In this document: positions 25,658 to 51,559 of the stretch, one piece after another
Layout of the letters: each line of letters opens with the position of its first letter
How positions within the stretch are numbered: the first letter of the stretch is position 1
The notes under the pieces: model-generated
What the model was told of the DNA's origin: nothing
What the model saw: the letters and a program-made list of their open reading frames with translations, nothing else
Databases searched by the model: none
Position numbers and translations under genes: made by a program
NCBI GenBank assembly: GCA_973895155.1
Contig: OZ316893.1
Coordinates: 186,001 to 250,000 of the forward strand
Length of the DNA: 64,000 nt
Source: Marsupella aquatica
Taxonomy: Eukaryota; Plantae; Marchantiophyta
Direction of reading: 5' to 3'

Positions 25658-27044
25658 TGTCGTATAGTGCTAAGTATCAAAAGTGACTCTCCTCACCTAA
25701 AACCAGGGTTTCGATCCCTTTAAGAACAGATTTCAGAATGAATTGTATAACTTTTATCACTCCGAGTGATTTAGAGTCTTGAGCTCTATGTTGACTTCAC
25801 TTCTCAATAAAAAAATCGAATAAACAAACAACAAAGTAACTGAACTTCTGATTTATGAATTAGAGAAGAAATGAGTAAGGATTTAGAGACTACAAGCTAC
25901 TGCCACTCCTTCAGAAAGGATTTGGGCTCAGTATAGACATGAAATCTATCTCATAATTCATCCATCTCACTCTTCAAAACACAAAGGTTAATGATAATGG
26001 AATTCTCAATCTGATGAAGCAGAAGCTTTCTGATTGCAAATGAATGATATGATTTAAAATGCCGTCAACATGGTTTGACATCAGCGATACGCAATTCAGT
26101 CAAACTCTAAACCATATTCCAGAATCAAAGCAACAGTACTAACTACTCTGAGAATCAGAATTTACTTCTCATTTATCATTAACTATTCTTGAATTGGCTA
26201 GCGAATCCCGACTCTGCAAGCAAGCCTAGCAGTGAATTCAATACGAGTTTCAGAAATCTGCAACTGAATTCAATCACCACAGGAATCTCTTGAATTCAAT
26301 CTTAACTTCAATCAATATAGCTTTACTTCCATACAAAACACTCACAGCATGCCTTGTTACAATGGAAGGAGGAGAAAACTATTCAGAAGACTCAATTCTG
26401 AATACAGTATTAACTCTATTTCTCTCTACTTCAAATGAGCATTCTACTCTGTCTTATAAGTGCTGGAATCCTAAAATGGAGGAGGTAAGAACAGTCGTGC
26501 CTTTCCAAGCTTAAAACTAAACAAGGGAGAAGCACAGCATAAGTACTTCAACAAGGGTGGTAGAATACTACTTTACTAGTAATCTACTTCAAAAACTAAG
26601 TGTTGAGCGGACGCTGCTAGAAGCGTCGGGAGAATCTGGACGCTGCTAGAAGCGTCTTAAGTAAAACCAACGGACGCTGCTCACACTGCTCACAGCGTCA
26701 ATACTAGGGTGGACGCTGCTCACAGCGTCGTGTGTTGAAGCTGACGCTTTCCACAGCGTCGGTCGAAATCCTCATAGAGTCTTGGTGGCGGTCGGGCACT
26801 GCCAAAAGCGTCATGAGGAGGTTGGACGCTTCCGCAGCGTCTTGAGTAAAAGAAACGGGCGCTGGTCACAGCGTCGGGCAAAGTACACTAGGAATCGTCA
26901 GGAAAGCCGGAGATGTCAAATATTTCTATAAGTGTCCAGAACAAGTAAATGTTGGCCGGAAGGTGTCTAAAGTGTAAGTAAATCTTGTGATATGCTAAAA
27001 ATAAACAAGTTTCCAGAAAAAATTGCAGGGACACCCATACCACA
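25658..27044. mobile_element. Solo LTR (1387 bp) with 5-bp TSD CTTCC
   Basis: Begins TGTCGTAT (25658), ends ATACCACA (27044); CTTCC at 25653..25657 and 27045..27049; excision restores the host reading frame. Confidence 0.85.
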
Positions 27045-27239
27045 CTTCCAACTTGCTCTGTGACTCTAATCTCAACAACTGAAGTTGTGTGCTCACATCA
27101 TCTCGTTGTTTAGTGCACCCTGCAAGTTCACTTTCCAATTCTTCCATGCGCATTTGGATATCCTTCAAAGCACATTCAGCACCTAAACATGATTCCATGT
27201 GCACTGCCTGCTCTACAAGCTTTCGTTGAACATCTTCAA

Positions 27240-28560
27240 ACTTGCTTTCTGACGACAATTTCAACAACTCAAGTTCATTGATCGCGGCATCTCGTGCTGC
27301 AACACACCTTTCAAGGTCAGCACTCAATTCTGCCATGCGCGATTGGTCCTCCTTCCAACCTTGTTCAGCAGCTTGGTAATTGTCATTGCGCTTTGTCACT
27401 TGCACAAGCTTTTCTTCAAGGTCTTTCAACCTGCATTGTGACTACAATTTGAACTCTTCAAATTTGCTGGTGACCGCATCTCGTTTTGCAGTGCCCATTT
27501 GAAGTTCAGCACTCAGTTCTGCCATGCGTGATTGGTCCTCCTTCCAACCTTGTTTAGCAGCTTGGTAATTGTCATTGCGCTTTGTCACTTGCACAAGCTT
27601 TTCTTCAAGGTCTTTCAACCTGCATTGTGACTACAATTTGAACTCTTCAAATTCGCTGGTGACCGCATCTCGTTCTGCAGTGCCCATTTGAAGTTCAACA
27701 CTCAGTTCTGCCATGCGTGATTGGTCCTCCTTCCAACCTTGTTCAGCAGCTTGGTATTCGTCATTGCGCTTTGTCACCTGCACAAGCTTTTCTTCAAGGT
27801 CTTTCAACTTGCATTGTGACTGCAATTTGAACTCTTCAAATTTGCTGGCGATAGCATCTCGTCCTACAGTGCCCATTTGAAGTTCAGCACTCAGTTCTGC
27901 CATGCGCGATTGGTCCTCCTTCCAACCTTGTTCAGCAGCTTGGTATTCGTCATTGCGCATTGTCACCTGCATAAGCTTTTCTTCAAGGTCTTTCAACCTG
28001 GACTGTGACTGCAATTTGAACTCTTCAAATTTGCTAGTGACCGCATCTCGTTTTGCAGTGCCCATTTGAAGTTCAACACTCAGTTCTGCCATGCGCGATT
28101 GGTCCTCCTTCCAACCTTGTTCAGCAGCTTGGTATTCGTCATTGCGCTTTGTCACCTGCACAAGCTTTTCTTCAAGGTCTTTCAACCTGCATTGTGACTG
28201 CAATTTGAACTCTTCAAATTTGTTGGTGATCTCATCTCGTCTTGTAGTGCCCATTTGAAGTTCAACACTCAATTCTGCCATGCGTGATTGGTCCTCCTTC
28301 CAACCTTGTTCAGCAGCTTGGTATTCGTCATTGCGCATTGTCACCTGCACAAGCTTTTCTTCAAGGTCTTCTAACCTGCATTGTGACTGCAATTTGAACA
28401 CCTCAAATTCTCTGTTGACCGCATCTCGTCCTGCATTGCACATTTCTTGTTCAACACTCAAATTTGCCATGCACGATTGGTTCTCATTCCAACCTTCTCC
28501 AGCATCTTGGTATTCGTCATTCCGCGTTGTCTGTGCCGTCAACTCCCCTTCAAGGTCATC
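27240..28560 (-). repeat. 189-bp coding tandem repeat (63 aa = 9 heptads), about 7 units
   Basis: GTCTTTCAACCTGCATTGTGACT-type motif recurs at 27421, 27610, 27799, 27988, 28177 and 28366; unit 'QSQCRLKDLEEKLVQVTKRNDEYQAAEQGWKEDQSRMAELSVELQMGTAKRDAVTSKFEEFKL'. Confidence 0.95.
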
Positions 28561-30200
28561 AATCCTGCCTTCTAACTTTGATTCCGATGACTGAAGTTTA
28601 CATTTAATAGGTTGAGGTTGGGTTTCCCTTCTTGTAGTACCCTCGTTGCCAACATTTGGCCCGGATATAAGGCTTTCCCATGAAAATCCCCAATGTAGCA
28701 GCAACTGTGTAATAGCAGTCCCACAATAAGCGGGGAATGCCTTTGACTCACGAACATTCCTCATACCCTGAAGGTGTTTCTTGAATTTATTTATTTCCAA
28801 AGCCAATTCATCATAAACTAAGTCACTCCAATCTGGTAGCAATTTTGGCATAGGGCCTGCTAGTCTTTTTCCCTTCGGCAAAGTACCACACAAATACCAG
28901 TAAAAGTAACTCAATTGTTTTGCTGATAACTGTGAAGGCTTCTCCTTACCTAGCAGAATTTCCTGCACCACTCTAATTGCCCCAGACCATCTATCATACG
29001 GAGCTCTCAAAAGCTTTAAGCTATAGGGATTCCCTCTTATTCGTGGACGAACAAACAATTCATTGAATTCAGGACAGTGCATTCTCTGCCTGTACTTGGC
29101 GAATGTACCATACGGCAGCTTGAATGCCGCACGTAACACATTTTGTGTGATTTTCAATGAACGCCCTCAAAATTCACTGGATTTTGATGCATAATCAAAT
29201 CCCAACACAAACTCCTTCACCCCACATACGGCTGTTATGTTGTAATCAATCCCAAAAGTTTGTTGCAGACCAAGGTTGCAAATCATTGATGATCGAGTTT
29301 GTCACGTCGTAGGCTTCGGTTTTAACTCAGACTTCAGCTTAGACGGGCACATCCCTCGTAAATCTGAGGGTTCGGGCAGGAAGGGAAGCACGTAATGCAC
29401 CTTATTCTCGTAAACTAGCGCTAAGTGCGCATACTGCTAAATACAGACACCTCCTAGGTATGGTTTGTGTTCCGCCGCCGGAACGTACCTTAGTCGATAG
29501 CAGGATCGACCCCGGCTTAAGGGCTTCTAAGCCTTCGTGCTGTCTGCCTTCGATCCGGATTCGATGATACAGGTCCTCAACCCGTGCTCGCAACCACTTA
29601 CCCGCAGGCTGCACCCTGTGCACGTCTCGGGTAGTGCGTTCGGCCCGGCGCTGCCACCCATATACGAGAAACCCACACACATATGCGCACACATGCATAC
29701 AATCTCGATTTACACGAAGGAAAAATGATGGGAAAGGATTTTTACTACAAAGGGAACATATGCGTACACTTAGTTGACACGACAGCCCTGGAATGCACAG
29801 GTTCAAGGCCAAGGGTGCACACTACAACGGAGCCCGGCTCCGCACTCGCTCGGCAAGCTTAGTCCTACCCCCTCCCCTTGGTACTCTGTCATTCCCAGAG
29901 GTCGGGACTCCCCGCATGTCCCGCGGATGTCCGACTCTGAAACTAAAAACCCCCCCCCCGCCTCTACCGAGGGGTGCACTAAATACTAAGAGCCGAGGAA
30001 CGGGGTGTCCTCCCGCCGAAGATTCGCTGACCAAGGTCCTAACTAAGCTGACAGTCAGGCCGGAAAACGGCTGTGTCTTATTAGAAGATCCTAATCTACG
30101 CAGGCTGGACAGCAGGGCAGCGCTGCCGTACCTAAGGCAGGTGCCTGTCCCAAGAGCCTGACCAAGCCAATCCTAATCCTAATCTATTCCTACTCCGCCG

Positions 30201-32849
30201 CTAATGCCTGGCACGCTTGCCAGAGCCGCCCGAATGGGAACGGCCATCCTGCTGTCTTCGAAGCCTGTCATTGTCCGCTTTGAGGAGCTGGACCTGGTCC
30301 AACAGAGATTCGTTCTCTCGCCTCGCCGCGTCCGTCTCCTCTGCTGCCTCCTGACATGCCTCCTCCAGCTGCTGGGCGTCGCTCGCCAGTTTACTCGCCA
30401 GCTGGTCCTGCTTCTCGGCCTCGATTTGGAGCCGCGCCATCTCGGCCTGCAGTGTGGCTATCTCTGTCGCGTCCCGCTGGGCTCGCTCCTCGGCCTCCTC
30501 CAGGTCTTTCTGCCAGGTGACAGCTTGTTTCTTCAAACTGTCAATCTGGTTCCGGAGTCGTGTAATCTCGGCCTCGTTCCCAGCTTTGGCCTGTTCGGCT
30601 AGGGCGGTAAGAGCGTACGCCTTTGCTAACAACTCATCGGCGGCTGCAACCTTGGGTCGTAGTTGCAGAAGCTCAGCCTCTTGAGCCGCCACTTCGTTCT
30701 TTAGGTACACGGACTCCACCCGGTACCGCTCTATCCTCTGAAGGGCCTCCGACTGGGCCCGCCCTGCCTTTACGGCGGCAACCAACTCCTGATTGAAGAA
30801 ACAGGCTACCTTCCGAGCCATGAACTCCCCGGTATCCCGGGCAATTTGATGAGAGAAATCTCCCAGAAGCGCGTTCAGAAACGTACCCTGTACGAAGAGT
30901 TCCGGGTGGTCCAAGTTATGCCTGTCCGGATTTGGGCACGGGCAGACATCAACACGCGCAGGGGCCGGGGCAGTGACGTCCAGCCCTGGGGACATAACGT
31001 TGGAAGGGGCCGGAGTATCCTCCTGCAGTGATGTCCGGTTCTCCGGAATTGCCACCGGCGGGTCCTTGGGAGACCCGGGTTCGGGTAAGACCTCTGCCGT
31101 ACCAACTTCTGTACTTAGCCCGGCTAGTTGGGTCGCATCAACGGTTGCGACGACCGACCCCTCCGGCGCCTCCTCGGTTACGATTACAGCTATTTGTGGA
31201 GGTGGGGTGGGTGAAGCTGGCGTGTCCACTGGACTTCGGGCCTCGGGTTGGGGTCGTCTCTCCAATGCCGGAAAAACCCACCTAGCTGGGACCAGCTTTG
31301 TAACGTTGATGCGGGGAAGGGTTTGTCGATCAAACCGGGCATACCACTCAAGAATGATTTCGATGTGGCTAGCGAAATACGCCTTCCCGCCAATGTACAA
31401 CGTCTTCCTTCGCCGCTCCATCTCTTCATGGAATTTCTTAGCGAAGTACGACGCCCACTTCCTAGGTCGATAGTTCTCGACCTGGATGACCTGGGCGGCG
31501 GAGATCTCCCCCCGGGGTTCCATCAAGTGGAGAGCGTACCTCTGGAACTCCAGCCGCTCAGCTATCTTGGGCATGAGGCAGGTCCTCATCACGAACCCGT
31601 TGTCTACTGATCCCTCTGAGGGAAAACTTGAAGATTGGTACTTGGCCCCCTTGCCCCCGGGAGCCCGTGATTCGACTCGATGGTCACCTTCGGGTAACCC
31701 GAAGATCATCTTGAGCCGTTCTTCTGTGAGGGACATATTCCTTCCCCGCAGCCGAGTCTGTTGACGTACGTCGTCATAATTCTTGACGAATTCTGTCATG
31801 TCCTCCCCGTAGTACCTGCAATTATTCCAGGGGAGAGAGGCGAGGTGCTCAAATCCCTGAGTCTTCAGGTACACCGCATGCTTGGGATGGAGGATGTTGC
31901 TGTGAACGTTTTCCCCCATGCAATGCATCGTTACCTTGGCTACGGCTACCGTGGCCAACGGTAACCCGGATGCACTGGCGGATTCCTTTCTCTTCTTTCC
32001 CCGTGACTGACTCGGGGAAGGTGATACTTCCCCATCCTCCCGATCGGGCCTGGGGAGTGCCACTGCGGTTGGTAACGGGCCCGGGGCGGCCACGGTCACC
32101 ATGTTGTCTGCTGGGGCCGCTCCTGGGGTCAGAGCAGGGGTTGGGGACGGTATAGTGTCGGCCCCCCGAGCGCTTGTGCCTCTGGGCCGCCTGGTCAAGG
32201 GTGGGGTAGCCTCGTCGTCATCGCTAAGATCTACAGCGTTGATGACGGAGCGTACCTGTGCTGGCTGGGTGATAGGTGGTGGGGTTTGGCTAGGCTGCGG
32301 CTGAGGCTGAAGCTGAAGCTGAGGTTGCATGGGCACGGGTACGGGTACGGGTACGGGTACGGGTCCGGCTGAGTTGGTCATGTTGGTTGATGGCCGAGTT
32401 CCCATGAAGCTCCGTAGGTGCTGGTAGAAGTTCTCCGAAGCGAGTGCGGACGCCCTTGTCGAACGGTTGGTACTGGACTCGCCATTAATGACTGCCCAAA
32501 CCTGGGCAGGGATGTGGTCGAAGTGATGTCGCTGCAGGTCGATTGTACCCGGGATATTGAAGACCTCGTCCGGAAGCCGAAGCAATGCTTCCCAGAACCC
32601 GATATATTTGTCTCCATCAAAGAAGTACCCAGATACCTCAGCTGGTCGGTAAAGCTCGCTCTGAGACGGGTAGTCAAAGTTAAGGACGTAGTGGTGTCGT
32701 CCTGCTAGGCAGATGGCTCTCTCGTATTCGCGTTCGATCTCGTATCGGCGCGGGTTGGCGTGTTTCAATGAATCGGCCAAGTGCCTTCCGGTAGATAGGA
32801 ACTGCGTCCAGAATCGAATGGCCGAGCTGGAGAGGATCGTGTGCGACAT
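30201..32849 (-). CDS. LTR-encoded 882-aa protein: N-terminal globular module, Pro/Gln-rich linker with NLS-like RGKKRK, PMD/Transposase_32-like domain, C-terminal coiled coil
   Basis: Uninterrupted ATG-to-stop ORF wholly inside the LTR; 'GFEHLASLPW...MTEFVKNYD...LRGRNMSLTEERLKMIFGLPEG...KWASYFAKKFHEEM...AYFASHIEIIL'; heptads over the last ~180 aa; ends GKRARH. Confidence 0.85.
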   Translation of the reverse strand: MSHTILSSSAIRFWTQFLSTGRHLADSLKHANPRRYEIEREYERAICLAGRHHYVLNFDYPSQSELYRPAEVSGYFFDGDKYIGFWEALLRLPDEVFNIPGTIDLQRHHFDHIPAQVWAVINGESSTNRSTRASALASENFYQHLRSFMGTRPSTNMTNSAGPVPVPVPVPVPMQPQLQLQPQPQPSQTPPPITQPAQVRSVINAVDLSDDDEATPPLTRRPRGTSARGADTIPSPTPALTPGAAPADNMVTVAAPGPLPTAVALPRPDREDGEVSPSPSQSRGKKRKESASASGLPLATVAVAKVTMHCMGENVHSNILHPKHAVYLKTQGFEHLASLPWNNCRYYGEDMTEFVKNYDDVRQQTRLRGRNMSLTEERLKMIFGLPEGDHRVESRAPGGKGAKYQSSSFPSEGSVDNGFVMRTCLMPKIAERLEFQRYALHLMEPRGEISAAQVIQVENYRPRKWASYFAKKFHEEMERRRKTLYIGGKAYFASHIEIILEWYARFDRQTLPRINVTKLVPARWVFPALERRPQPEARSPVDTPASPTPPPQIAVIVTEEAPEGSVVATVDATQLAGLSTEVGTAEVLPEPGSPKDPPVAIPENRTSLQEDTPAPSNVMSPGLDVTAPAPARVDVCPCPNPDRHNLDHPELFVQGTFLNALLGDFSHQIARDTGEFMARKVACFFNQELVAAVKAGRAQSEALQRIERYRVESVYLKNEVAAQEAELLQLRPKVAAADELLAKAYALTALAEQAKAGNEAEITRLRNQIDSLKKQAVTWQKDLEEAEERAQRDATEIATLQAEMARLQIEAEKQDQLASKLASDAQQLEEACQEAAEETDAARRENESLLDQVQLLKADNDRLRRQQDGRSHSGGSGKRARH

Positions 32850-32950
32850 TCAGAGGAGATAGTAGTGGCGATCTAAAGAGAACGAGAGAGCTGGGGTCGA
32901 AGCTGGCGCGCGGACTGATGGACTGGTGCACTACAAAGGGTTGGCTCCCC

Positions 32951-32957
32951 TTTTATA
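32951..32957 (-). promoter_or_regulatory. TATA box of the LTR promoter (TATAAAA)
   Basis: Minus-strand GTATAAAAGGGG ~100 nt upstream of the LTR-ORF ATG; conserved in the 5' LTR (~43107..43113) and in the related fragment (~51022..51028). Confidence 0.65.
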
Positions 32958-33282
32958 CTTTGAGGGCTTGTCGATCCCCGACGTCTCCTCGACGCCCATA
33001 GGTTGAACCGCTCACGCTTGTGGTGTACCGGCCACTCCGCCGGTCTGAGTCAGCGTGCGTCAGTGGCCGCTTCCTTAAGTTCGTTATACGGACCCGAGGG
33101 AGGGGCCCCTCCATGCTCATAACCCGGGTGTGCGAATAGCGACCCGCCGCCAGCCCGAACCTGAAGTCCCCCTTATTGCCTAATGATGTCCTACCCCTAA
33201 TGATTACCTAAATACTGTCGTTATGCTAATAATAGCGGCCTAAGACCCACCTAACGCGCGTGCCGAGCGCAGTTAGACTGAA

Positions 33283-36200
33283 TCACTCATTAACCGCCGT
33301 ACCGGCGGCGTCACATAGCTCCCTGCTTAATTGTGAAGCGTCCTCGCGAACATCGCTATCGGCGTCGTCATCTTGAGGGTGGTACTTTTTTACACGATCG
33401 TAGCTGATTCGCGTGGGGAGTAAATCGCCGGCATACGTCGCAAGCTCCAAAGATCCGTTTCGGTAGATCTGATTGACAAGGAAGGGCCCCAACCACCGGG
33501 TATGCAGCTTCCCTGGAAACTGCATGTACCTACTATCGTACAGAAGGACTAGATCGCCTGCCACGACGTCGACCCTCCGTAGTCCTTTGTCGTGCTGCTT
33601 CTTTGAAGTTGCCTGTTTCTTCACGGTGTGTCGAGCTGCCAGTAGCCGTGCTTCTTCCAAGGCTTCAATCTGATAAGCTCGGTCTGACAGACTTTCAGAT
33701 TCAGGTAAGCGATCCCGAATGCTGACCCGTGGAGTGTGCACTTCAAATTCGACGGGCACCAACGAATGTTGGCCGAACACCAGAAAGTACGGGCTATGAC
33801 TCGTAGTAGTTTTGTAAGCTAGATTATACGAGTACACCGCCGCGTACAACTTATCATCCCAATCCGTTTTGTGCGCAGCTACAGTTTTGTTGAGGATCTT
33901 CCCAATGATACCATTTGCTCTCTCCGCCATCCCGTTGGCTTTAGGATGATATGGGGTAGTCTTGCGGTGCTTGACTAGGTAACGCTCCGTAAGCTGGGCT
34001 ACGGTGTCATTGAGGAAGTGGGTTCCACGGTCGCTTACCAATTCTAAGGGCGGTCCGAATCGGGTGAAAATCTGTTCGTATAAGAATCTGGCACTGGTTG
34101 CGGCGTCGTCCTTTACCGTAGCCCGCGCTTCGACCCATTTGGTGGAGTAATCAATAGCTAATAGGATGTATCTGCACCTTCGCCTTCGGGTAACGGGAGT
34201 GAACGGTCCGATATAATCAATTCCCCATTTTTCGAATGGTGCCAATGGAAGCACAGATGTGAGCGGGTGATGATGAGCCCGCCTCGGGGCCCCCGCTCGC
34301 TGACACAAGTCACAGCCCTTAATGAAGCGCTGTACATCCCGATGCAACGTAGGCCACCAATACCCCGAGTCCAAAATCTTTCGGGCTGTCGTAACTGCCG
34401 CGAAATGGCCTCCAGCTTCTTCTTCATGCAGGGCCCGTATCACGATAAGTGTCTCCTTATACTCTAAGCAGCGTCGTAACTTTCCGTTAATACCTTCCTT
34501 ATGTAGGTGACCCTGTATCATGACGTAAGGCCCGGCTTTCCGTAAAAACACAGCGGCGGCCTCCTGATTGATGCCGTCAGGGATGCGGCCCGTTAAAAGG
34601 AAGGTGATTATTGAGCCGTACCACGTTGGTGTCCCTTCCCCTACGTGGAACAACTCCTCATCCGGAAAAATATCATCAATTGGCTGATCGACTGGTACGC
34701 CGTCCAGTCGTGAAAAGAAATCGGCATTGAGGTGTACCCTTCCTGGCCGAACCCGAACTTCGTAATTAAATTCCTGGAGAAGTAGCACCCACCGGGCTAT
34801 CCGTCCTGTCACATCCGCTTTGTTGACCATGTACTTCAGGCTATCATGATCCGTGTGGAAAATGACCTTGTAGCCTAGCAGATAGTGTCGGAACTTTTTA
34901 CACGAGTAGATTATTCCCAAAGCTTCTCGATCAGTGGGGGAATAATTCTTTTCGGCTGCAAATAGTTGACGGCTAGCGAAATAGATGGGGTGATCACGTC
35001 CATCCTCATCTAGCTGACTAAGTACGGATCCGATACAGAACCCTGACACATCGACATACACGTGGAACTCCTTATTCCAGTCTGGGGTGACCATGATAGG
35101 CGCGGTGGTGAGTCGTTTACGGAGTTCCTCAAAAGCAATCCGTCTCCGGGGTGTTTCCTCGACCGCTGCGTCCTTCTTCATCATCTCAGTTAAGGGCAAC
35201 GCAATTTTAGCAAAGTCTTTAATGAACCGGCGGTAATACCCTACGCAGCCCAAGAAGGATCGTACTGCTTTTTGATCCAAGGGGAACACCACCGCCATCC
35301 AGGCCGCAACTTTCTCTTAGTCCACCTCAATGCCCCGTTTGGACACACGATGCCCGAGTAACACCCCCTCCTCTACCCCGAAGAAGCATTTGGCGGGATG
35401 TAGTTTGAGGTTAACATCTCGGCATCGTTGCAACGTTCGTCGTAGGTGTTCGGGGTGCATGGCAACGGTTCCGAAGATGGCAAAGTCATCGATAAATATC
35501 TCCAAAAATTCCCGTAGGAAATCGTGGAAGATATTCATCATAAGGCGCTGAAACATAGCCGGGGCGTTACATAGACCAAAAGGCATCCTCCGAAATGCGA
35601 ACGTTCCCCACTCCGTAGTGAACGTTGTTTTGAGTTGATCCGCGAGACGAATCCAGATTTGGTTATACCCTGAATACCCGTCAAGAAATGTATAGATTTC
35701 ATTTCGGGCCACCATATCTAGAACCATATCCGTGAATGGTAATGGGTAATGGTCTTTTCAGGTTGCGTCATTCAGCTTACGGTAGTCCTGACAGATACGA
35801 ATCTTAGGTTTTCCCTCCGTACCTCCCTTCTTCGGTACAATGACAATGGGAGAGACCCAGTCGCTGGCCATTACCGGGTAAATGATATCGGCGGCGAGGA
35901 GACGATCAATTTCCTCCTTCACTAAGATGGAGTACCTCGGATTCATGCGACGTTGTCGCTGTCGTACCGCATGGGCTCCTAGGTTCAGATCGATTGTGTG
36001 TTCTCCCAACTCGGGGGAGACGCCTGTTAAATCATGATGACTCCATGCAAACACATCTTCATATTCCTTGAGCAAATCTTGGATGGCTTTTTCAGCCTTC
36101 CCCGTCAAAGCGTGGCCCAGGTTAAAAGATTTGTCCATCCCAATAGTGTACTTCCGGTAGTGCTCCTTCCTGATGACTTCAACCTGGTTTCGCAGACTCG

Positions 36201-39200
36201 GGTCCAGGCTCGCGTCAAGCTCAGCTAACCGAACCCCTCCGTACATGGGTGGGACCGGGATCGGTCTCGGGATGGGGTTTACTTCCTCCAATTGCGGAAT
36301 GGACGGATCCCATGAGACTCGCTTTTTATGTCTCGGTCTCGAGTTTTCGGCCTCAGGCGGTTGTTGGGCTGGTTCATGGTTACAAGGCTCTGAAATGGAA
36401 GGAGTAGCCACGGCTCCCTGCTTGGCTGGAGCCGTGTCCTCCGTCTCGACGAGTTGTTCGTGCGTTTCCTCATCCCCGACAGTAGATGTACTTGGGGTGG
36501 ACTCAATGGCAGCCCTTGGGTAATTTAGGAGATGTGTTTCTCGGGTTGCTTCAACTCCGAAGACATCTTCCTCGGATAGGGACGAGATGAGTTCGATCAT
36601 ATTGAGTTCCTCTTCCTCCGAGGTCTCCGAATCATATTCCTCGGGTCCTTGTGGGGTTTCTCCCTGATAATCGTCCATTGCCCAGGATACCCGTACGGTG
36701 GGTTCCCCGAACCGTAGCTCCTTCTTTCCCCAATCCGTGACTACACGGCCACCGTACAGCCACGGCCTGCCCAGAAGAACCGGATAAGAGGAGGGACGAA
36801 CCGGCCTCATGACTAAGAAGTTGAGATAGAACTCTACCCCTCCCACCAGAGTGAGCACTCGTGTGAGCGTGCCTAATGGGAGGACCCTTGCCCCGTTTGC
36901 TAATCTGATAGCTCGGGCCGTGGGTTGATACGTGAGGTATCCTAACTTGACTGACGTTTCTTCAGTCATGATGTTGACTCCCGCTCCTCCGTCTACAAGG
37001 ACCGTCTTGATGGTACAGTTATTAATTTCGATCGAGATGTCCGGCGCTCCAAGGTCCTCGCATATCATGTTGCAGTCCGCACTCCCAACTCGGGGTAGTC
37101 TTCTCCTTCGGCGACCCATGAGCAACTCCCTCAGTTGTCGTCTGTACTGTGGGTTGTTCTGCAGCAGTTGCCCCACCGTCGTTGTAACCGGGCAACTCTT
37201 CACGTCCTCCTTAATATCATAGTCCTCCTTTGTTTCTTTCGTTGGCTGCTGCTTGGCTTCCTCTTGTTTATCTTGCTTTTCTTGCTCCTGACGCCGGGCT
37301 GTCTCGGCTGCTGCTTGGCTTCCTCTTGTTTATCTTGCTTTTCTTGCTCCTGACGCCGGGCTGTCTCGGCTGCTTTGATGTCCTTATCGATTGCCTTCTG
37401 GTATTCCCGAGCTTCGTAAGCCTCCAGCTGTTTCTTTACCAATTCTTCGATGCGGGGGAAAAATAGCTTCGGGTCGTCCCGTCGGTAGTCATCGTCCTTT
37501 TCTGGGGGTATATTTATCGCTGGCTGCACTGGAGTAGTATCTTGCTTTTTCCTCCATTTCTCCTCCGTCTTTTCTTCCTTCCGTTCGGCCCTTGTCGACA
37601 CTCGGTAGCACTCGGCCTCATCCAATGGATTAGGGTGTTCCGCCACGTCCACCAGATTCACCCACTCGGTGTTGTCATCTTGCCATTCTACAGCAATCAT
37701 TTGGACGACTGCATCGCTCGTGACTGGTCCAGCCTGGGCCGGTCTAGCCACACTCGTTCGAGCAGCGATTACCAACGGACAGTTGGCCGTGGAATGAGCC
37801 TCCGTTTTGCAAACTTGACATAGTGGGGTGCCTCGACCATCTCCCTGACGTCTTGGTTCGGTGCATTCCCTCGCAAAGTGTCCTGGCTTTTCACAGTTGT
37901 AACAAACCGGGGACCGCCAAATCCCTGGCTTAGGAGGGATGCTCGGGTTACTGATAACCTGGAAACTCCGGCCATTACTTGGGTAGGGGTACGCAATTCT
38001 ACCCGCTAAATTACGCGGACCAACCATTGAAATCTGGTACACGGAATCAGGAGGGTCCTCAAAGAAATACTCCGTGGACTCCGATTCGGGGCCCGGGTTG
38101 TCAACATCATCCAGCTCTACTTGGTGAACTCGGTTCTTCCACCTTGGGCATTCCTGCACCACATGGCCGGATTGGAAGCACTTTGAACACCACGCATGGG
38201 CTCGAATCTCAGATGGCTTCTTCTTCTCCACCGGCTTCTCCGCAAGATGTACTGACAGTGCTTTGAGTCGATCCGTGATTTCGTTCAGCTTGTCTGCTTC
38301 GGCAGCCTTTGGATCTGGTATCATTCTTCGCGCCCGGGGTTTAATCTTCCCCTCCTTCTTCACTCGTCTCTTCTTCTTTTTGCTCCGGCTTTCGCTCTCC
38401 AAGTCACTTCCTGATGAACTGGAGGTAGAGGATCCGATGCTTGAAGCTGAATCCGAACTGGATTCCGTCTCGGAGCTGGACGAGGTCGAACGATGTTTCT
38501 TCTTCTTCTTCCGTTTCTTCTTCCTCTCGTCGTCCGATTCGGAGTCACTGTCACTGAAGGTTTCGTACTTACCCTTCCTGCGGCGTGCTCGCTGGCTCCG
38601 CCGGGAGTTATAGGTGGACTCCCGGTAAGTTTCGGCGCACGCTATGGCCGCCTGCATTGAAATTGGATTATTCTGGCGTACCCAGAATTGCATATTCGTG
38701 GGCAAACCATGAAGGAACCATGTAAGCTGGAGCGCGTCTCCTGGCCTGGGCCGGATCTTGGCCGCAAGTTTCTGAAACTTCTGAATGAACTTCCGCAGGG
38801 ACTCTTTTTTTCCCATGCGAAGCTGGCCAATCTTTAATAGAGAACGTTGTTCTGATCCAATGGCACGAAACTCCTGCAGCAATGCAGCTTGGAATTGTGC
38901 CCAGGTAGTCCCGGGTGGTAACGAGTTGTACCATGGACGAGCTTCTCCCCGCATTACTCCCGGGAGGACGGTTAGCTTAATGGCGTCTTCCCCATTAGCT
39001 TTAGCAGTGGCTTCAAACTCATCCAACCATTCATCCGGATCATCCCCATGACGCCCTTTGAAAGGTCGATAATGAAATCGCGATCGTTGCGATATTTGTG
39101 GAGGCGCCTGAGCAGCGCGGGCCACCGGTGGAGCGGCTGCCATAGGTGGTGGTGGTGGTGGTGGTGGAACCGCAGCAGGGCCGGTCGAACCGGACCCCGA

Positions 39201-39338
39201 AGATCCCGGGGGTATGTTCATACGTCGGGATGATTGCGAGTCCTCCGAGCCCGACGAGTCGGAGCTTGTTGTGGTTGCACTTTCTCGTTCGCTGGTCAAT
39301 CTCCTCAAGTAAGCTGCTTGAGAACCAGTGACGGGCAT
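33283..39338 (-). pseudogene. gag-pol polyprotein (Gag with three Zn knuckles, protease, RT, RNase H, integrase), inactivated
   Basis: Knuckles CSKCFQSGHVVQEC, CYNCEKPGHFAREC and CQVCKTEAHSTANC; protease VLVDGG; RT 'QDYRKLN', 'MPFGLCNAP', 'FIDDF'; RH 'YVDVS', 'NYSPTDRE'; INT HHCC, 'WGIDYIGP', 'SDRG', 'WLGPF'. Broken by a 62-bp duplication (~37244..37367) and stops at 35758 and 35317, with pol segments all in one frame. Integrase reads into the 3' LTR. Confidence 0.95.
33316..33330 (-). other. Candidate polypurine tract (AAGCAGGGAG)
   Basis: Short purine-rich run on the minus strand immediately before the 3' LTR; imperfect. Confidence 0.45.
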
Positions 39339-39430
39339 TTACTCATATAAATGCAATGGTTAGTACTACGTCCTGATGTATCCTGCCTAGGTGAATACGC
39401 ACATGTCTCCCCTCTACGATATGTAGAGTG

Positions 39431-39449
39431 CCCCCTCCATCTAGCGCCA
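39431..39449 (-). other. Primer-binding site TGGCGCTAGATGGAGGGGG
   Basis: Begins with TGG about 12 nt inside from the 5' LTR; resembles the TGGCGCTAGA-type PBS of plant Tat/Athila-group elements. Primer tRNA not determined. Confidence 0.75.
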
Positions 39450-39461
39450 AAACAAAGGCTA

Positions 39462-42400
39462 TGTCACGTCGTAGGCTTCGGTTTTAACTCAGACTTCAGC
39501 TTAGACGGGCACATCCCTCGTAAATCTGAGGGTTCGGGCAGGAAGGGAAGCACGTAATGCACCTTATTCTCGTAAACTAGCGCTAAGTGCGCATACTGCT
39601 AAATACGGACACCTCCTAGGTATGGTTTGTGTTCCGCCGCCGGAACGTACCTTAGTCGATAGCAGGATCGACCCCGGCTTAAGGGCTTCTAAGCCTTCGT
39701 GCTGTCTGCCTTCGATCCGGATTCGATGATACAGGTCCTCAACCCGTGCTCGCAACCACTTACCCGCAGGCTGCACCCTGTGCACGTCTCGGGTAGTGCG
39801 TTCGGCCCGACGCTGCCACCCATATACGAGAAACCCACACACATATGCGCACACATGCATAAAATCTCGATTTACACGAAGGAAAAATGATGGGAAAGGA
39901 TTTTTACTACAAAGGGAACATATGCGTACACTTAGTTGACACGACAGCCCTGGAATGCACAGGTTCAAGGCCAAGGGTGCACACTACAACGGAGCCCGGC
40001 TCCGCACTCGCCCGACAAGCTTAGTCCTACCCCCTCCCCTTGGTACTCTGTCATTCCCAGAGGTCGGGACTCCTCGCATGTCCCGCGGATGTCCGACTCT
40101 GAAACTAAAACCCCCCCCCCCGCCTCTACCGAGGGGTGCACTAAATACTAAGAGCCGAGGAACGGGGTGTCCTCCCGCCGAAGATTCGCTGACCAAGGTC
40201 CTAACTAAGCTGACAGTCAGGCCGGAAAACGGCTGTGTCTTATTAGAAGATCCTAATCTACGCAGGCTGGACAGCAGGGCAGCGCTGCCGTACCTAAGGC
40301 AGGTGCCTGTCCCAAGAGCCTGACCAAGCCAATCCTAATCCTAATCTATTCCTACTCCGCCGCTAATGCCTGGCACGCTTGCCAGAGCCGCCCGAATGGG
40401 AACGGCCATCCCGCTGTCTTCGAAGCCTGTCATTGTCCGCTTTGAGGAGCTGGACCTGGTCCAGCAGAGATTCGTTCTCTCGCCTCGCCGCGTCCGTCTC
40501 CTCTGCTGCCTCCTGACATGCCTCCTCTAGCTGCTGGGCGTCGCTCGCCAGTTTACTCGCCAGCTGGTCCTGCTTCTCGGCCTCGGTTTGGAGCCGCGCC
40601 ATCTCGGCCTGCAGTGTGGCTATCTCCGTCGCGTCCCGCTGGGCTCGCTCCTCGGCCTCCTCCAGGTCTTTCTGCCAGGTGACAGCTTGTTTCTTCAAAC
40701 TGTCAATCTGGTTCCGGAGTCGTGTAATCTCGGCCTCGTTCCCAGCTTTGGCCTGTTCGGCTAGGGCGGTAAGAGCGTACGCCTTTGCTAACAACTCATC
40801 GGCGGCTGCAACCTTGGGTCGTAGTTGCAGAAGCTCAGCCTCTTGAGCCGCCACTTCGTTCTTTAGGTACACGGACTCCACCCGGTACCGCTCTATCCTC
40901 TGAAGGGCCTCCGACTGGGCCCGCCCTGCCTTTACGGCGGCAACCAACTCCTGATTGAAGAAACAGGCTACCTTCCGAGCCATGAACTCCCCGGTATCCC
41001 GGGCAATTTGATGAGAGAAATCTCCCAGAAGCCCGTTCAGAAACGTACCCTGTACGAAGAGTTCCGGGTGGTCCAAGTTGTGCCTGTCCGGATTTGGGCA
41101 CGGGCAGACATCAACACGCGCAGGGGCCGGGGCAGTGACGTCCAGCCCTGGGGACATAACGTTGGAAGGGGCCGGAGTATCCTCCTGCAGTGATGTCCGG
41201 TTCTCCGGAATTGCCACCGGCGGGTCCTTGGGAGACCCGGGTTCGGGTAAGACCTCTGCCGTACCAACTTCTGTACTTAGCCCGGCTAGTTGGGTCGCAT
41301 CAACGGTTGCGACGACCGACCCCTCCGGCGCCTCCTCGGTTACGATTACAGCTATTTGTGGAGGTGGGGTGGGTGAAGCTGGCGTGTCCACTGGACTTCG
41401 GGCCTCGGGTTGGGGTCGTCTCTCCAATGCCGGAAAAACCCACCTAGCTGGGACCAGCTTTGTAACGTTGATGCGGGGAAGGGTTTGTCGATCAAACCGG
41501 GCATACCACTCAAGAATGATTTCGATGTGGCTAGCGAAATACGCCTTCCCGCCAATGTACAGCGTCTTCCTTCGCCGCTCCATCTCTTCATGGAATTTCT
41601 TAGCGAAGTACGACGCCCACTTCCTAGGTTGATAGTTCTCGACCTGGATGACCTGGGCGGCGGAGATCTCCCCCCGGGGTTCCATCAAGTGGAGAGCGTA
41701 CCTCTGGAACTCCAGCCGCTCAGCTATCTCGGGCATGAGGCAGGTCCTCATCACGAACCCGTTGTCTACTGATCCCTCTGAGGGAAAACTTGAAGATTGG
41801 TACTTGGCCCCCTTGCCCCCGGGAGCCCGTGATTCGACTCGATGGTCACCTTCGGATAACCCAAAGATCATCTTGAGCCGTTCTTCTGTGAGGGACATAT
41901 TCCTTCCCCGCAGCCGAGTCTGTTGACGTACGTCGTCATAATTCTTGACGAATTCTGTCATGTCCTCCCCGTAGTACCTGCAATTATTCCAGGGGAGAGA
42001 GGCGAGGTGCTCAAATCCCTGAGTCTTCAGGTACACCGCATGCTTGGGATGGAGGATGTTGCTGTGAACATTTTCCCCCATGCGATGCATCGTTACCTTG
42101 GCTACGGCTACCGTGGCCAACGGTAACCCGGATGCACTGGCGGATTCCTTTCTCTTCTTTCCCCGTGACTGACTCGGGGAAGGTGATACTTCCCCATCCT
42201 CCCGATCGGGCCTGGGGAGTGCCACTGCGGTTGGTAACGGGCCCGGGGCGGCCACGGTCACCATGTTGTCTGCTGGGGCCGCTCCTGGGGTCAGAGCAGG
42301 GGTTGGGGACGGTATAGTATCGGCCCCCCGAGCGCTTGTGCCTCTGGGCCGCCTGGTCAAGGGTGGGGTAGCCTCGTCGTCATCGCTAAGATCTACAGCG

Positions 42401-43471
42401 TTGATGACGGAGCGTACCTGTGCTGGCTGGGTGATAGGTGGTGGGGTTTGGCTAGGCTGCGGCTGAGGCTGAAGCTGAAGCTGAGGTTGCATGGGCACGG
42501 GTACGGGTACGGGTACGGGTCCGGCTGAGTTGGTCATGTTGGTTGATGGCCGAGTTCCCATGAAGCTCCGTAGGTGCTGGTAGAAGTTCTCCGAAGCGAG
42601 TGCGGACGCCCTTGTCGAACGGTTGGTACTGGACTCGCCGTTAATGACTGCCCGAACCTGGGCAGGGATGTGGTCGAAGTGATGTCGCTGCAGGTCGATT
42701 GTACCCGGGATATTGAAGACCTCGTCCGGAAGCCGAAGCAATGCTTCCCAGAACCCGATATATTTGTCTCCGTCAAAGAAGTACCCAGATACCTCAGCTG
42801 GTCGGTAAAGCTCGCTCTAAGACGGGTAGTCAAAGTTAAGGACGTAGTGGTGTCGTCCTGCTAGGCAGATGGCTCTCTCGTATTCGCGTTCGATCTCGTA
42901 TCGGCGCGGGTTGGCGTGTTTCAATGAATCGGCCAAGTGCCTTCCGGTAGATAGGAACTGCGTCCAGAATCGAATGGCCGAGCTGGAGAGGATCGTGTGC
43001 GACATTCAGAGGAGATAGTAGTGGCGACCTAAAGAGAACGAGAGAGCTGGGGTCGAAGCTGGCGCGCGGACTGATGGACTGGTGCACTACAAAGGGTTGG
43101 CTCCCCTTTTATACTTTGAGGGCTTGTCGATCCCCGACGTCTCCTCGACGCCCATAGGTTGAACCGCTCACGCTTGTGGTGTACCGGCCACTCCGCCGGT
43201 CTGAGTCAGCGTGCGTCAGTGGCCGCTTCCTTAAGTTCGTTATACGGACCCGAGGGAGGGGCCCCTCCATGCTCATAACCCGGGTGTGCGAATAGCGACC
43301 CGCCGCCAGCCCGAACCTGAAGTCCCCCTTATTGCCTAATGATGTCCTACCCCTAATGATTACCTAAATACTGTCATTATGCTAATAATAGCGGCCTAAG
43401 ACCCACCTAACGCGCGTGCCGAGCGCAGTTAGACTGAATCACTCATTAACCGCCGTACCGGGGGCGTCACA
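39462..43471 (-). repeat. 5' LTR (4010 bp)
   Basis: TGTCACGTCG at 39462 ... GGCGTCACA at 43471, followed by TSD GAGTT. Confidence 0.97.
40363..43005 (-). pseudogene. 5'-LTR copy of the LTR ORF with a premature stop
   Basis: Same protein as 30201..32849 but codon 63 CAG is TAG (42817..42819); ORFs 42817..43005 and 40363..42741 are in frame. Confidence 0.9.
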
Positions 43472-44104
43472 GAGTTGGATCACCTCCCACCAAACTGCGG
43501 ATTCGTTCCGGTGTGCAAGAATGCCACAACGTTCCAGTGCCGCCTGTTTCAATTCCAACCCACAGATTATCAAAATATTCCACATATCATCACTAAACCG
43601 CAATGCAAAATTCAACTATATGCAATGATGACCAACTATTAAGTATTGTAATCCAAACCTTCCTTTTCCACCTCCTTGTAGGGCTGGACCTCGTCGTAAG
43701 GTGACTCTGCCTTGTCCTCCATGTTTTGGATCTGCTGTGCTTGAAATTCGCTTCTGTTGTATGAAAGGTAGTCCACTTAAGTAAACCCTAATCCTATCAC
43801 CAACACATTGCCGTGAGCAACTCATGAGGCTTACTCGACGGAAGGAGGGTATTGACACGCAAGGAGCCTCTCAAAACATGACAGATTCCATTTCGGCAAA
43901 GCTGCTTGTTTAGGGTATTGGATGCTGTCAATCCATGTACTTAAACTTAAACTCCTTGTTGTGAAGAAACGTTCCCTTTGTTATGAGGCGTCTTGTCCAA
44001 GTCACTGCCAACCTTTCTGGAATCCGGAGATGCGAACTGAAATGCTCCTATATTGCCAGCACCCCATAAGCACCAAAGTTGTGCACAGTTGGTGCTCGGG
44101 TAAA

Positions 44105-45880
44105 GGGCATTGTACAGTCCTTCTGCATTACCCGAGCACACTGTGGCTATGCGCTATAGAATACCCCATCCCTCGGGTCCCAACCTTCAAAATACTGTAA
44201 TTTGATACATACATACCCTTCGGTGCACATTGACATTATTTTGCATTACCCCAGCACATGTTGGCTGTGCATTTTGGAATACCCCATCCCTCGTACCACC
44301 CAACTTTCAAAATACTGTAATTTGAAACATACATGCCCATCCGAGCACATGGGCATTTGCATTACCCTAGCACATGGTGGTTGTGCGTTTTGGAATACCC
44401 CATCCCTCGTACCCCCCAACCTTCAAAATATTGTAATTTGATAATACATACCCTTCGGAGCACATTGGCACTTGCATTACCCCAGCAAATGGTGGCTGTG
44501 CATTTTGGAATACCCCATCCCTGGTATCCCCAACCTTCAATACTGTAATTAGATACATACATACCCTTTGGTGCACATTGACATTTGCATTACCCCAACA
44601 CATGGTGGCTGTGCATTTTGGAATACCCCATCCCTCGTACCTCAACCTTCAAAATACTGTAATTTGATACATACATACCCTTCAGAGCACATTGGCACTT
44701 GCATTACCCCATCACATGGTGGCTGTGCATTTTGGAATACCCAATCCCTCGTACCCCCCAACCTTCAAAATATTGTAATTTGATACATACATACCCTTTG
44801 GAACACATTGGCACTTGCATTACCCTAGCACATGGTGGTTGAATGTGCGTTTTGGAATACCCCATCCCTCGTACCCCCCAACCTTCAATACTGTAATCTG
44901 ATACATATGTACCCTTCAGTGCACATTGACATTTGCATTACCCCAGCACATGGTGACTGTGCATTTTGGAATACCCCATCCGTCATACCCCCCAACCTTC
45001 AAAATACTGTAATTTGATACATACATACCCTTTGGAGCACATTGGCACTTGCATTACCCCAGCACATGGTGGTTGTGCGTTTTGGAATACCCCATCCCTC
45101 ATACCCCCCAACCTTCAAAATACTGTAATTTGATAATACATACCCTTTGGAACACATTTGCACTTGCATTACCCCAGCACATGGTGGTTGAATGTGCGTT
45201 TTGGAATACCCCATCCCTCATACGGGTATGGCACGCGTGACAGTAAATAGGAAACAGGTTTACTAGTACCAGCAAAAAGTTACTATTACCAGGAAAAACA
45301 ACCATGTTAAAATATTTTCTAAAAAGTCACATTTTCCAAAAAAAATTAAATTGCAACGTTCTTTGGCTAGCTTTGGGCGCTAGCATTACCAGCGCCGGGC
45401 GCTGGCAAAAAAAATGAAAAATTTGAAGGGAAAAAAAAAATTTCAAAAAAAAATTTCAAAAAAATTTCAAAAAAAATTACCACTCGTTTTCCTGTTACCA
45501 GTTTCTGTTTCCTGTTACTGTTTGCTGTTTCCTGTCGTTTGTAAATACCCCCCTCATACCCCCCAACCTTCAAAATACTTTAATTTGATATATAGATACC
45601 CTTCGGAGCACATTGGCACTTGCATTACCCCAGCACATGGTGGCTGTGCGTTTTGGAATACCCCATCCATCGTACCCCCCAACCTTCAAAATACTGTAAT
45701 TTAAATATATACATACCTTTTGGAGCGCATTGGCACTTGCATTACCCCAGCACATAGTGGCTGTGCATTTTGGAATACCCCATCCGTCGTACCCCCCAAC
45801 CTTCAAAATATTGTAATTTTAAACATACATACCCATCCGAGCACATGGGCATTGGCATTACCCCAACACATGGTGGTAGT
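44105..45880. repeat. Satellite A, ~115-118-bp units, about 10 + 3 copies around a ~320-bp spacer
   Basis: Unit GCATTACCCCAGCACATGGTGGCTGTGCATTTTGGAATACCCCATCCCTCGTACCCCCCAACCTTCAAAATACTGTAATTTGATACATAC...; spacer at 45223..45545. Confidence 0.95.
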
Positions 45881-47715: not shown

Positions 47716-48582
47716 TTACGGTACGGTGGCTACAGAGAGCAGATTGCCCGCCATCGCTCGCGGATATGAAGGAAATGCTAAGTCGAGCAGCAATTCCAAC
47801 CAGAAGAGAGAAGAGACGGGTACAAAGAAAGATAGCAGGAGAGCTAGAACTATAATCCGAGGATACATTTCTCTCGGGTTGTTCCTTAATCTTGACCAGA
47901 GAGATGCAGGTCGGTTGGATAGGTCTCGTGCTCCAGTCTCACTGATGCCGAAAACACTATCAGCGGCATCCCCTAAAAAGTACTCTACTTCTCCCTGACA
48001 TGGTCTGACCTCAGCCACATGCCGAACATGACTAGTATTAAGTTTAGGACATGCATCTTTATGATGTCCGGTTTTATAACATAAAGAGCTATCCTCGAGT
48101 ACTACCTTCTTCTTTGGCTTTACCTCTGCTATTATAGCCTTAAGCTGCTCAGTAAGAGCTACGATGTTATCTGGTGTTTTAGCTTCTAGCTTGACTTTCA
48201 ACTTCCCCCTCCTTCTACCCTTCTTTTTCCGAGATTTTTCTTCTTCAGAACTAGAAGATGACTCACTCTTGCTACTTCCACTATCCGAGCTTGAGTTATC
48301 ACTTCTTGACTTCTTAGAATGTTTCTTTCTCTTATCTTTTTTCTTATGGGGTGATCCCTCCTCCAATGAGGAACTCTCAGACTTGAGCTATTTCTTTCGG
48401 CTTGTGATGTCTGCATTAATGTATAATTGAATATCTCTAATTGCCTCGGCTAAAGTCTTTGGGTTCTCCTTCCTAATTGCAAAACTCATCTTCTGTGGCA
48501 AAGCATTCACCAACCATTGAAGTTGCATACCTTCAGATGCATTGGTCTTTGTGCCTCTTACCAGCTTTTGGAAGCGTTGCAA
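47716..48582 (-). pseudogene. Degenerate gag fragment of a relative of the 29.3-43.5 kb element
   Basis: 'QRFQKLVR...QLQWLVNALP..AIRKENPKTLAEAIRD' parallels 'QKFQKLAA...QLTWFLHGLP...VRQNNPISMQAAIAC'; the same Lys/Ser-rich tract and knuckle remnant 'CYKTGHHKDAC' follow. Confidence 0.8.
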
Positions 48583-48686
48583 GAACTTTTTGAAGGGAAA
48601 GTGCGCTGAAGGGGGAACTCGAGGATATCCGCGGAGCCCTGGAGCAGAAGGAAGCCGAGTTAGGAAAATCCTATCAGGCGATCATT

Positions 48687-50418: not shown

Positions 50419-51367
50419 TTAGGGAGCCATGGGCCGCACCACAGGGCCTGCACTGGTGGTTGGTGGTCTGGTTCCCATGAAGTTTTGCAGGTGCTGGTAG
50501 AGGTTTTCGGAAGCAAGTGTAGACGGCCTTGTCGACCGGGTAGTGTTGAACTCGCTGTTGATGATGGCCTGGACCCGAGCGGGGATGTGGTCGAAGTGGT
50601 GCCGCTGTAAGTCGATCATGCCCGGGATAGTGAAGACCGCATTCGGAAGCCAAAGCAATGCCTCCCAAAAGCCAATGTATTTTCCCTCGTCGAAGAAGTA
50701 CCCTGATATTTCTTTGGGTCGGTAAAGCTCGCTCTGGGATGGGTAATCAAAGTTAAGGAGATAGTGGTGGCGGCCTGCTAGGCGGATGGCTCTCTCGTAC
50801 TCGCGTTCAATTTTGTATCGGTGCGGGTTGGCGTGTTTTAATGAGTCGGCCAAGTGCCCCCCGATAGACAGGAACTGCGTCCAGAATCGTATGGCCAAAC
50901 TAGAAAGGATCGTGTGCGACATTCAGAGGAGATGGAAGGCAACTAAGGATGGGCAAGAGAACTGGGGTCAAAGCTGGCGCATGGACTGAAGAACTGGTGC
51001 ACTGCAAAGGATCGGCCCCCTTTTTATACCCTGAGAGCTCGTCGGTCGCCCGACGCCTCCTCATCGCTTATAGGCCGAGCCTTTCATGCTTGCAATGTAC
51101 CAGCCACTCCGCCAGTCCAGGTCAGCGTGTGTGAGTGGCCACCTCCTGAAGTTTGTTATATGGACCCAAGGGGGGGCCCATTACACGCTCGCAACCCGGG
51201 CATGCAAATGGCGACCCGCCGCCAGCCCAAACACGAAAGCCCCTTATTGACTAATGATTTCCTACTCATAATGGCTACCTAAATACTGTCGTTACGCTAA
51301 TAATTATGGCCTAAGATACCCCTAATGCGCGTGCTAAGCGTGGTTAGGCCGAATCACTCATTACCCG
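50419..51367 (-). mobile_element. LTR fragment of a related family with a short (167-aa) version of the LTR ORF (50419..50922)
   Basis: Collinear with ~32395..33297, including the TATA box; 'MSHTILSSLAIRFWTQFLSIGGHLADSLKHANPHRYKIEREYERAIRLAGRHHY' is closely similar to the 882-aa ORF N-terminus; the terminal ~20 bp of the LTR are missing. Confidence 0.9.
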
Positions 51368-51559
51368 CGCGATGAAAGTGCAACCAGATTTCAGGAAACC
51401 AGATTTCAGGAAATTCTTAAAGGTCCACCTCAGCATTGTGGATGTGCTACGGTGATGGGGCGACGAGTTGAGTTGGCTGCAAGGGTGATGATTGAAGTTA
51501 GAAGCACTCAATGGTGGCTAGATCAGATGAAGGTAGGAAGTCCATTTTGTGAGCAAAAC

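Follow-up and report, generated by a model that had tools for sequence, protein, structure and literature searches.

The 64-kb window analysed here, that is, the whole stretch of DNA under study, carries on its minus strand a 14.2-kb Ty3/Gypsy element whose 4-kb long terminal repeat (LTR) contains a gene under purifying selection. In the best explanation of the locus, to which we give roughly an even chance of being right in all its parts, this is a young, non-autonomous, non-chromovirus copy, and its 882-codon LTR gene encodes a protein with a predicted PMD/VANC21 core that is likely to be a nuclear DNA-binding factor with an anti-silencing or activating role. Accessory ORFs of this fold family are known from the internal regions of plant Gypsy elements (PMC7264820; available text of PMC6317226 and PMC11963269), and the novelty lies in the LTR position. 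No description of an LTR-resident protein gene in a plant retrotransposon was found in the openly available texts searched; the available parts of PMC12885004, PMC7466625, PMC2829016 and PMC13195028 describe no such gene.

Structure and surroundings of the element

Self-comparison of the window revealed two direct repeats, 99.1% identical, and the element was annotated as follows.

39462..43471, minus strand: 5' LTR, 4,010 bp, TG...CA
29300..33315, minus strand: 3' LTR, 4,016 bp
43472..43476, minus strand: target-site duplication AACTC, 5 bp, upstream copy (sequence and empty-site joint)
29295..29299, minus strand: target-site duplication AACTC, downstream copy (sequence and empty-site joint)
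39432..39449, minus strand: primer-binding site, starting 12 nt past the LTR
33316..33351, minus strand: polypurine tract with a conserved upstream signature, found also before the LTR-proximal tract of the related loci L001 and L008
37200..39338, minus strand: gag (Retrotrans_gag, zinc knuckle; Pfam)
33283..37329, minus strand: pol with protease, RT, RNase H and integrase (Pfam)

The hallmarks of Ty3/Gypsy (LTRs with TG...CA, target-site duplication, primer-binding site, polypurine tract) are present, and the domain order gag-PR-RT-RH-INT is that of the same group. On the minus strand the LTR starts with TGTGAC and ends with GTGACA; 29 substitutions and a single 6-bp indel separate the two LTRs (K2P 0.0073), and the copy is young, a point that forms part of the joint reading given above. 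The primer-binding site appears to resemble the 3' end of plant tRNA-Asn. Bases just outside both inner LTR ends (39450-39461; 33316-33319) are complementary, TAGC against GCTA, lengthening the terminal inverted repeat, and together with the 12-nt spacer they suggest a long overhang trimmed by integrase. The spacer between LTR and primer-binding site in L001 is similar to that of the window element. No Rfam match and no tRNA gene were found.

An empty site, in which position 29294 is joined to 43472, occurs in two contigs of run X2, with five ambiguous letters at the joint. It may be a paralogue, since the flank is itself repeated: the flank has a contig depth of about 700-1,550, which indicates that the insertion target is a high-copy repeat. 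The element entered some 130 bp upstream of an open frame that encodes coiled-coil repeats of 63 residues (189 bp), beside a 116-bp tandem array (26995-29166; 44124-45886). The sequence-only reading had proposed a Gypsy retrotransposon with 4-kb LTRs at 29300..43471, and the repeats with their TG...CA ends, the AACTC duplication and the empty-site contig bear this out.

The RT region contains two in-frame stops, and the gag/pol junction has a frame break at a 62-bp tandem duplication; this copy is therefore non-autonomous. At one of the RT stop positions, contigs of three runs read otherwise, which makes that stop private to this copy. No Pfam match to a chromodomain follows the integrase and the pol ORF closes soon past it, which separates the element from the chromoviruses, and no pol piece has a Pfam match to the second, archaeal-type RNase H, which separates it from the Tat clade (TatI-III, Ogre, Retand). 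In the pol tree, loci whose pol is followed by an RNase-H-like ORF branch separately; three loci (L054, L056 and L058) have a short ORF of this kind, recognised by eye, after the integrase, as described for TatIII elements. The closest named pol matches come from Calypogeia fissa (56-68% local identity) and Riccia sorocarpa, angiosperm matches are about 40% identical and branch apart in trees, and no relative of pol was found in viral contigs. In L001 (813-817), L003 (1909-1913) and L004 (3141-3145) a long upstream frame is in frame with pol and separated from it by one stop codon, which may be a read-through signal.

Elsewhere in the window, 47716-49508 holds a gag-like fragment that resembles, by eye, the gag of the element (minus strand) and an antisense coiled-coil frame (plus strand), near a diverged LTR fragment. 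On the minus strand at 15350-20058, two adjacent long frames, one with an Ulp1 (Peptidase_C48) domain and a weak methylase-like match, are probably another transposon. A PPR-E-DYW gene of 1,370 codons (57527-61639) contains eight 303-bp units that are 87-95% identical, which points to recent internal expansion.

The LTR-resident gene and its protein

The ORF, its copies and the parts of its product are located as follows.

30201..32849, minus strand: intact LTR-resident ORF, 882 codons, in the 3' LTR
40363..43005, minus strand: the ORF as found in the 5' LTR, 6 bp shorter and broken by an in-frame stop at codon 63
50454..51368, minus strand: fragment of a related LTR, 80% identical, with the promoter region and the first ~165 ORF codons (sequence comparison)
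32400..32849, minus strand: N-terminal domain, aa 1-150, common to the homologues P0123 and P0156; dN/dS 0.14-0.22
31332..31937, minus strand: central domain, aa 305-506, predicted PMD/VANC21 fold
30246..30752, minus strand: C-terminal coiled-coil region, about aa 700-868, with sub-threshold coiled-coil Pfam matches only

The ORF spans LTR positions 467 to 3,115, or 66% of the LTR, and stops 901 bp short of its end; TATAAAA stands at position 359, about 100 nt before the ATG. The proportions given by the sequence-only reading (two-thirds of the LTR, a start about 100 nt past TATAAAA, an end about 900 bp before the LTR end) are thus accurate. Its statement that each LTR carries an 882-codon gene stands for the 3' LTR and fails for the 5' LTR, in which the stop leaves open stretches of 62 and 817 codons.

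At this composition, 882 stop-free codons would arise by chance with a probability of about 4e-14. Comparison with the 80%-identical fragment over 158 codons gave a dN/dS of 0.14-0.22 (bootstrap 95% range 0.08-0.32, over two kappa values), and third positions hold 55 of the 91 differences. Within the 40 best-supported of 2,578 variant rows, 15 of 19 ORF variants are synonymous, against about 32% expected, several of these variants adjoining one another and so not independent; among 12 listed indels of 78, eight fall in non-coding LTR, two form a compensating pair in the ORF and two lie outside the LTRs. Between the 5' and 3' LTRs, 10 of 19 changes in the ORF are synonymous (P 0.03-0.05), which is a weak hint only. 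With a dN/dS far below 1 and most of the listed variants synonymous, the ORF is a selected gene, and the outcome that the sequence-only reading had named as refuting, a dN/dS near 1, did not occur.

That reading had also named the alternative of short LTRs with a local duplication. In the contig bins of runs X1 and X2 the depth of the ORF is at least that of the LTR ends and about two to three times that of the internal region, summed contig depth being no measure of copy number or of the solo-LTR ratio; ORF bins as deep as the LTR ends argue against a local duplication. Runs X5 and X6 hold small or diverged parts only and were left out as evidence of range. Together with the AACTC duplication outside the 4-kb repeats and the empty site, the depth assigns the ORF to the LTR.

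In the protein, a proline-rich linker joins the N-terminal domain (1-150) to the basic central domain (305-506), and another linker leads to the predicted coiled coil. The N-terminal domain belongs to no known family, its best ESM Atlas score of 0.75 being uninformative. A word-based search with the whole protein gave no scoring match among 7,988 candidates, nor, with the alignment as query at longer lengths, any among 5,890, and in metagenome contigs none of 153 pattern matches was confirmed. An exhaustive search with the central domain yielded 42 homologues, two of which (P0123 and P0156) also have the N-terminal domain. The central domain has no match in Pfam, and none of the 25 homologues scanned (of 42) reached a cut-off; DUF1985, the family of the VANC proteins proper, likewise gave no Pfam sequence match for the LTR protein or for these 25.

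A model of the central domain built from 43 sequences reached a pLDDT of 86.8 and a pTM of 0.82; a single-sequence fold (pLDDT 30.8) was discarded. The best Foldseek match of the model was VANC21 (9LNJ; E 0.017, probability 0.98, TM 0.50, 9% identity), followed by a match at E 2.6 and probability 0.01. For VANC21, VIA-align gave Z 8.4 and rmsd 4.2 over 213 aligned residues; against 48,161 solved chains VANC21 scored Z 8.3 (rmsd 4.3, 209 aligned), the next chain Z 2.2, and five chains in all reach Z 2. No match was found among viral protein structures, and at the sequence level there was no match to VANC or to any entry in the PDB. In ESM Atlas the clusters DUF1985, ATHILA, Transposase_32 and PMD scored 0.80-0.81 (DUF1985 0.81), values that serve as leads and no more. 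The L008 homologue of the ORF hits Transposase_32 with E 2.5e-4, which falls short of the curated threshold. The structure search suggested by the sequence-only reading therefore leaves VANC21 standing alone as a match to the predicted model. We favour a predicted PMD/VANC21 fold for the central domain despite the middling Z and the 9-10% identity, because the match stands alone, covers the domain and agrees with weak independent leads.

The central region is basic (pI 9.4 for aa 305-515), and basic clusters occur at residues 285-288, 479-482 and 878-881. No transmembrane segment is present, the highest 19-residue hydropathy being 1.18. The earlier description of a protein with NLS-like motifs and no transmembrane segment is accurate, and its view of the product as nuclear-looking rather than env-like agrees with the predicted resemblance to VANC21, a nuclear DNA-binding protein.

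Position of the gene in relatives and its proposed place on the transcript

Metagenome contigs scanned for pol gave 411 confirmed stretches, of which 80 were kept; 58 extend at least 300 bp past the pol stop. Among these 58 loci, a downstream sense ORF matches the domain profile at E<=0.01 in seven and weakly in two more, and a six-frame search of the 80 loci passed below E 1e-4 in L008 and L001 only. Alignment of the window's domain with the relatives' ORFs in hhalign (probability 47%, E 2e-4) amounts to a weak link by profile; the relatives' ORFs lack the N-terminal domain.

Two arrangements were observed. L001 and L008 have the order pol, purine tract, ORF, signature with tract, and LTR; L001 is a circular contig of 10,852 bp that comprises a whole element, with the ORF between the two purine tracts and an LTR of about 990 bp. 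In the window element, L003-L006, L010 and L011, the signature and tract directly follow pol, and the ORF comes after them. The signature also comes immediately after pol in L014 and L016, where no matching ORF was recovered. In L003 and L004 the bases that follow the tract repeat, in inverted orientation, the LTR end that precedes the primer-binding site (9/9 and 10/11 bases), which places the start of the ORF inside the LTR (515 and 661 bp in); none of the relatives' contigs contains two whole LTRs. A lenient pattern detected a TATA-like site 274-459 bp into the LTR in six of seven such relatives.

We infer that the LTR gene would be the family's ordinary post-pol accessory ORF, moved across the LTR boundary. 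In the quick tree, the LTR position requires one change (support 69). The careful tree (19 rows, from 38 of the quick tree) places L008 outside an unresolved split of the window element with L014, the L001 group and the L003 group; it requires two changes, and 39% of bootstrap trees permit one. An ancestor with an internal ORF would be slightly simpler; the tree is compatible with a move in either direction.

The following putative signals were located by motif inspection alone, as were all start, poly(A) and splice sites.

32951..32957 (43107-43113 in the 5' LTR), minus strand: TATAAAA at LTR position 359, followed by a pyrimidine-rich leader
29696..29768, minus strand: TGTA/U-rich stretch, possible poly(A) region, LTR position about 3550-3620
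39758..39763 (29596-29601 in the 3' LTR), minus strand: GTAAGT splice-donor-like site in the LTR tail
39359..39365, minus strand: TACTAAC branch-point-like motif before the gag ATG

The conserved placement of the TATA box points to a short U3, with the ORF in R. The TATA box would drive an mRNA that ends about 450 bp past the stop in the TGTA/U-rich stretch, which, judging from plant poly(A) signals, we presume to be the poly(A) region. On that layout R would be very long and would include the ORF, and the 5' poly(A) site would have to be read through to make genomic RNA. There are 42 ATGs upstream of gag, so that gag-pol needs a second start or a splice.

That last problem disappears if the ORF is a U3 gene under a promoter of its own, like MMTV sag, and the promoter for genomic RNA, together with R and U5, occupies the last ~900 bp of an LTR that grew by absorbing the post-pol region. 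We take this layout seriously and place it somewhat short of even. The 901-bp tail matches in length the ~990-bp LTR of L001, an element whose ORF is internal with a purine tract on either side, and the available text of PMC2829016 reports an additional tract in Athila4 and Calypso. However, TATAAAA is absent from the tail, no DNA similarity was found between the tail and the relatives' LTRs, and the tract of the window element bears the LTR-proximal signature of L001 and L008, not the upstream one, which fits poorly with a simple switch of tract and weakens an origin by simple shift to the upstream purine tract. The question concerns architecture, and the U3 layout is compatible with an anti-silencing role of the protein.

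Proposed function and comparison with known systems

According to the available text of PMC5735166, VANC21 binds a repeated motif, causes loss of methylation and keeps VANDAL21 expressed. By analogy, the LTR protein would act in the nucleus as the element's own DNA-binding factor and keep the family expressed, and each LTR, even a solo one, would serve as an expression cassette whose product acts in trans on the copies of the family. Family-specific palindromes in the relatives are what a protein-motif system predicts. TCCGGA occurs 56 times in L003, 57 in L004, 17 in L005, 37 in L006, 21 in L010 and 32 in L011 (whole loci), about 3- to 8-fold over the trinucleotide expectation, against seven copies in the window element and 0-1 in L001 and L008; in L001 a different palindrome, GCG-N6-CGC / AGCGCT, occurs 12-14 times. 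TCCGGA is a candidate target word of those six relatives' own LTR-encoded protein. Within the window element itself, among k-mers and spaced palindromes, coding-type GAA/CCA repeats alone stay significant after correction; CGGCGG is marginal in the non-coding LTR, and the corrected values for TTAGG and ATC-N2-GAT are not significant.

The fold alone shows no function: in the available text of PMC5418596, MAIN and MAIL1 share it and yet silence transposons. The protein may thus have a PMD/VANC fold and no counter-silencing activity, serving replication (nuclear import, chromatin tethering or integration targeting, an oligomeric scaffold) or exerting a restraint like that of MAIN/MAIL1. This is the strongest competitor for function, appreciably likely if less so than the reading we prefer. 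It is consistent with the missing target-motif array in the window element, with the silencing role of host PMD proteins, and with the functions of the Ogre PMD, Athila ORF-1 and Retand TRP28 proteins being given as unknown in the available parts of PMC6317226 and PMC11963269. It sits less well with the only solved structural match being a DNA-bound anti-silencing factor, with the basic central domain and with the palindromes of the six relatives.

It is very improbable that the product is env-like, with a role at membranes or in cell-to-cell movement of the kind suggested for the post-pol sense ORFs of Athila and SIRE. The homologous ORF of L001 and L008 stands where env would, and some 25 nt upstream of the ATG is a pyrimidine tract with AG at its end, but the protein has no transmembrane segment, does not match viral protein structures, and resembles in its predicted fold a nuclear DNA-binding protein. 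The idea that there is no real gene, or none borne by the LTR (a chance frame in GC-rich DNA, or short LTRs with a local duplication or assembly artefact), could appeal to the stop in the 5' copy and to the lack of a match at E<=0.001 for the whole protein in the word-based search, and it retains practically no probability: it is ruled out by the dN/dS far below 1, by a target-site duplication outside the 4-kb repeats with an empty-site contig that skips exactly this unit, by the depth of the ORF bins in both X1 and X2, and by the 42 homologues of the central domain.

The anti-silencing reading can be carried further, to a bryophyte Gypsy lineage with an LTR-encoded, sequence-specific factor of VANC type, in which solo LTRs would reactivate the family, protein and palindrome would co-diverge, and retrotransposons of non-seed plants would have been an early reservoir of the PMD/VANC fold, before MAIN and VANC; this extended scenario is tentative, and on balance we regard it as unlikely. 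Plant Gypsy elements often carry extra ORFs, whose role is described as open (PMC7264820; available text of PMC11963269). The present case offers a specific hypothesis, a VANC-like DNA-binding factor, along with candidate target words in relatives, and it extends the predicted PMD/VANC fold to bryophyte retrotransposons. It thereby bears on whether the domain originated in retrotransposons or in hosts, a matter described as fully open in the available text of the angiosperm survey PMC5418596. The LTR position also alters the fate of the gene: LTR-LTR recombination deletes gag-pol and would spare the gene, and relatives with the ORF inside or outside the LTR provide a natural comparison.

Among known systems, VANC21 of VANDAL21, an Arabidopsis Mutator-like DNA transposon (9LNJ/9LNK), shares with the LTR protein the predicted fold over 209-213 residues and the character of a transposon-encoded accessory protein with a coiled coil; coiled coils are predicted to oligomerise both VANC and Athila domains (available text of PMC13547354). 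It differs in belonging to VANDAL/Mutator DNA transposons of dicots, VANC being dicot-specific in the same text, whereas the LTR protein comes from a Ty3/Gypsy LTR of a bryophyte, is 9-10% identical, has an extra N-terminal domain and stands in an element in which no target-motif array was found. The host PMD proteins MAIN and MAIL1 are related in fold only through the structural homology of VANC and MAIN reported in the available text of PMC13547354, and unlike the LTR protein they are host genes that silence transposons.

The extra ORFs of OTA Ty3/Gypsy elements (Ogre PMD PF10536, Athila ORF-1 PF03078, Retand TRP28 PF04195; Transposase_32 PF20167) are similar as non-chromovirus accessory ORFs with a globular domain and a coiled coil; the Atlas leads point to the ATHILA, PMD and Transposase_32 clusters, and L001 and L008 carry the ORF between pol and LTR. 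Those ORFs lie in the internal region (PMC7264820; available text of PMC6317226), whereas the gene described here lies inside the LTR and falls below every Pfam cut-off. MMTV sag is likewise a protein gene mostly within an LTR and is found mainly in solo LTRs, as far as the available text of PMC4667437 goes; it is retroviral, located in U3 and immune-acting, in contrast to a plant retrotransposon gene with a nuclear-type predicted fold. By description, Phygy (moss) and Selgy of REXdb come close as non-seed-plant non-chromoviruses with no second RNase H and a polyprotein that fills the internal region; the available text of PMC6317226 describes them as rather short, as opposed to OTA elements with extra ORFs, whereas the element reported here measures 14.2 kb and has 4-kb LTRs.
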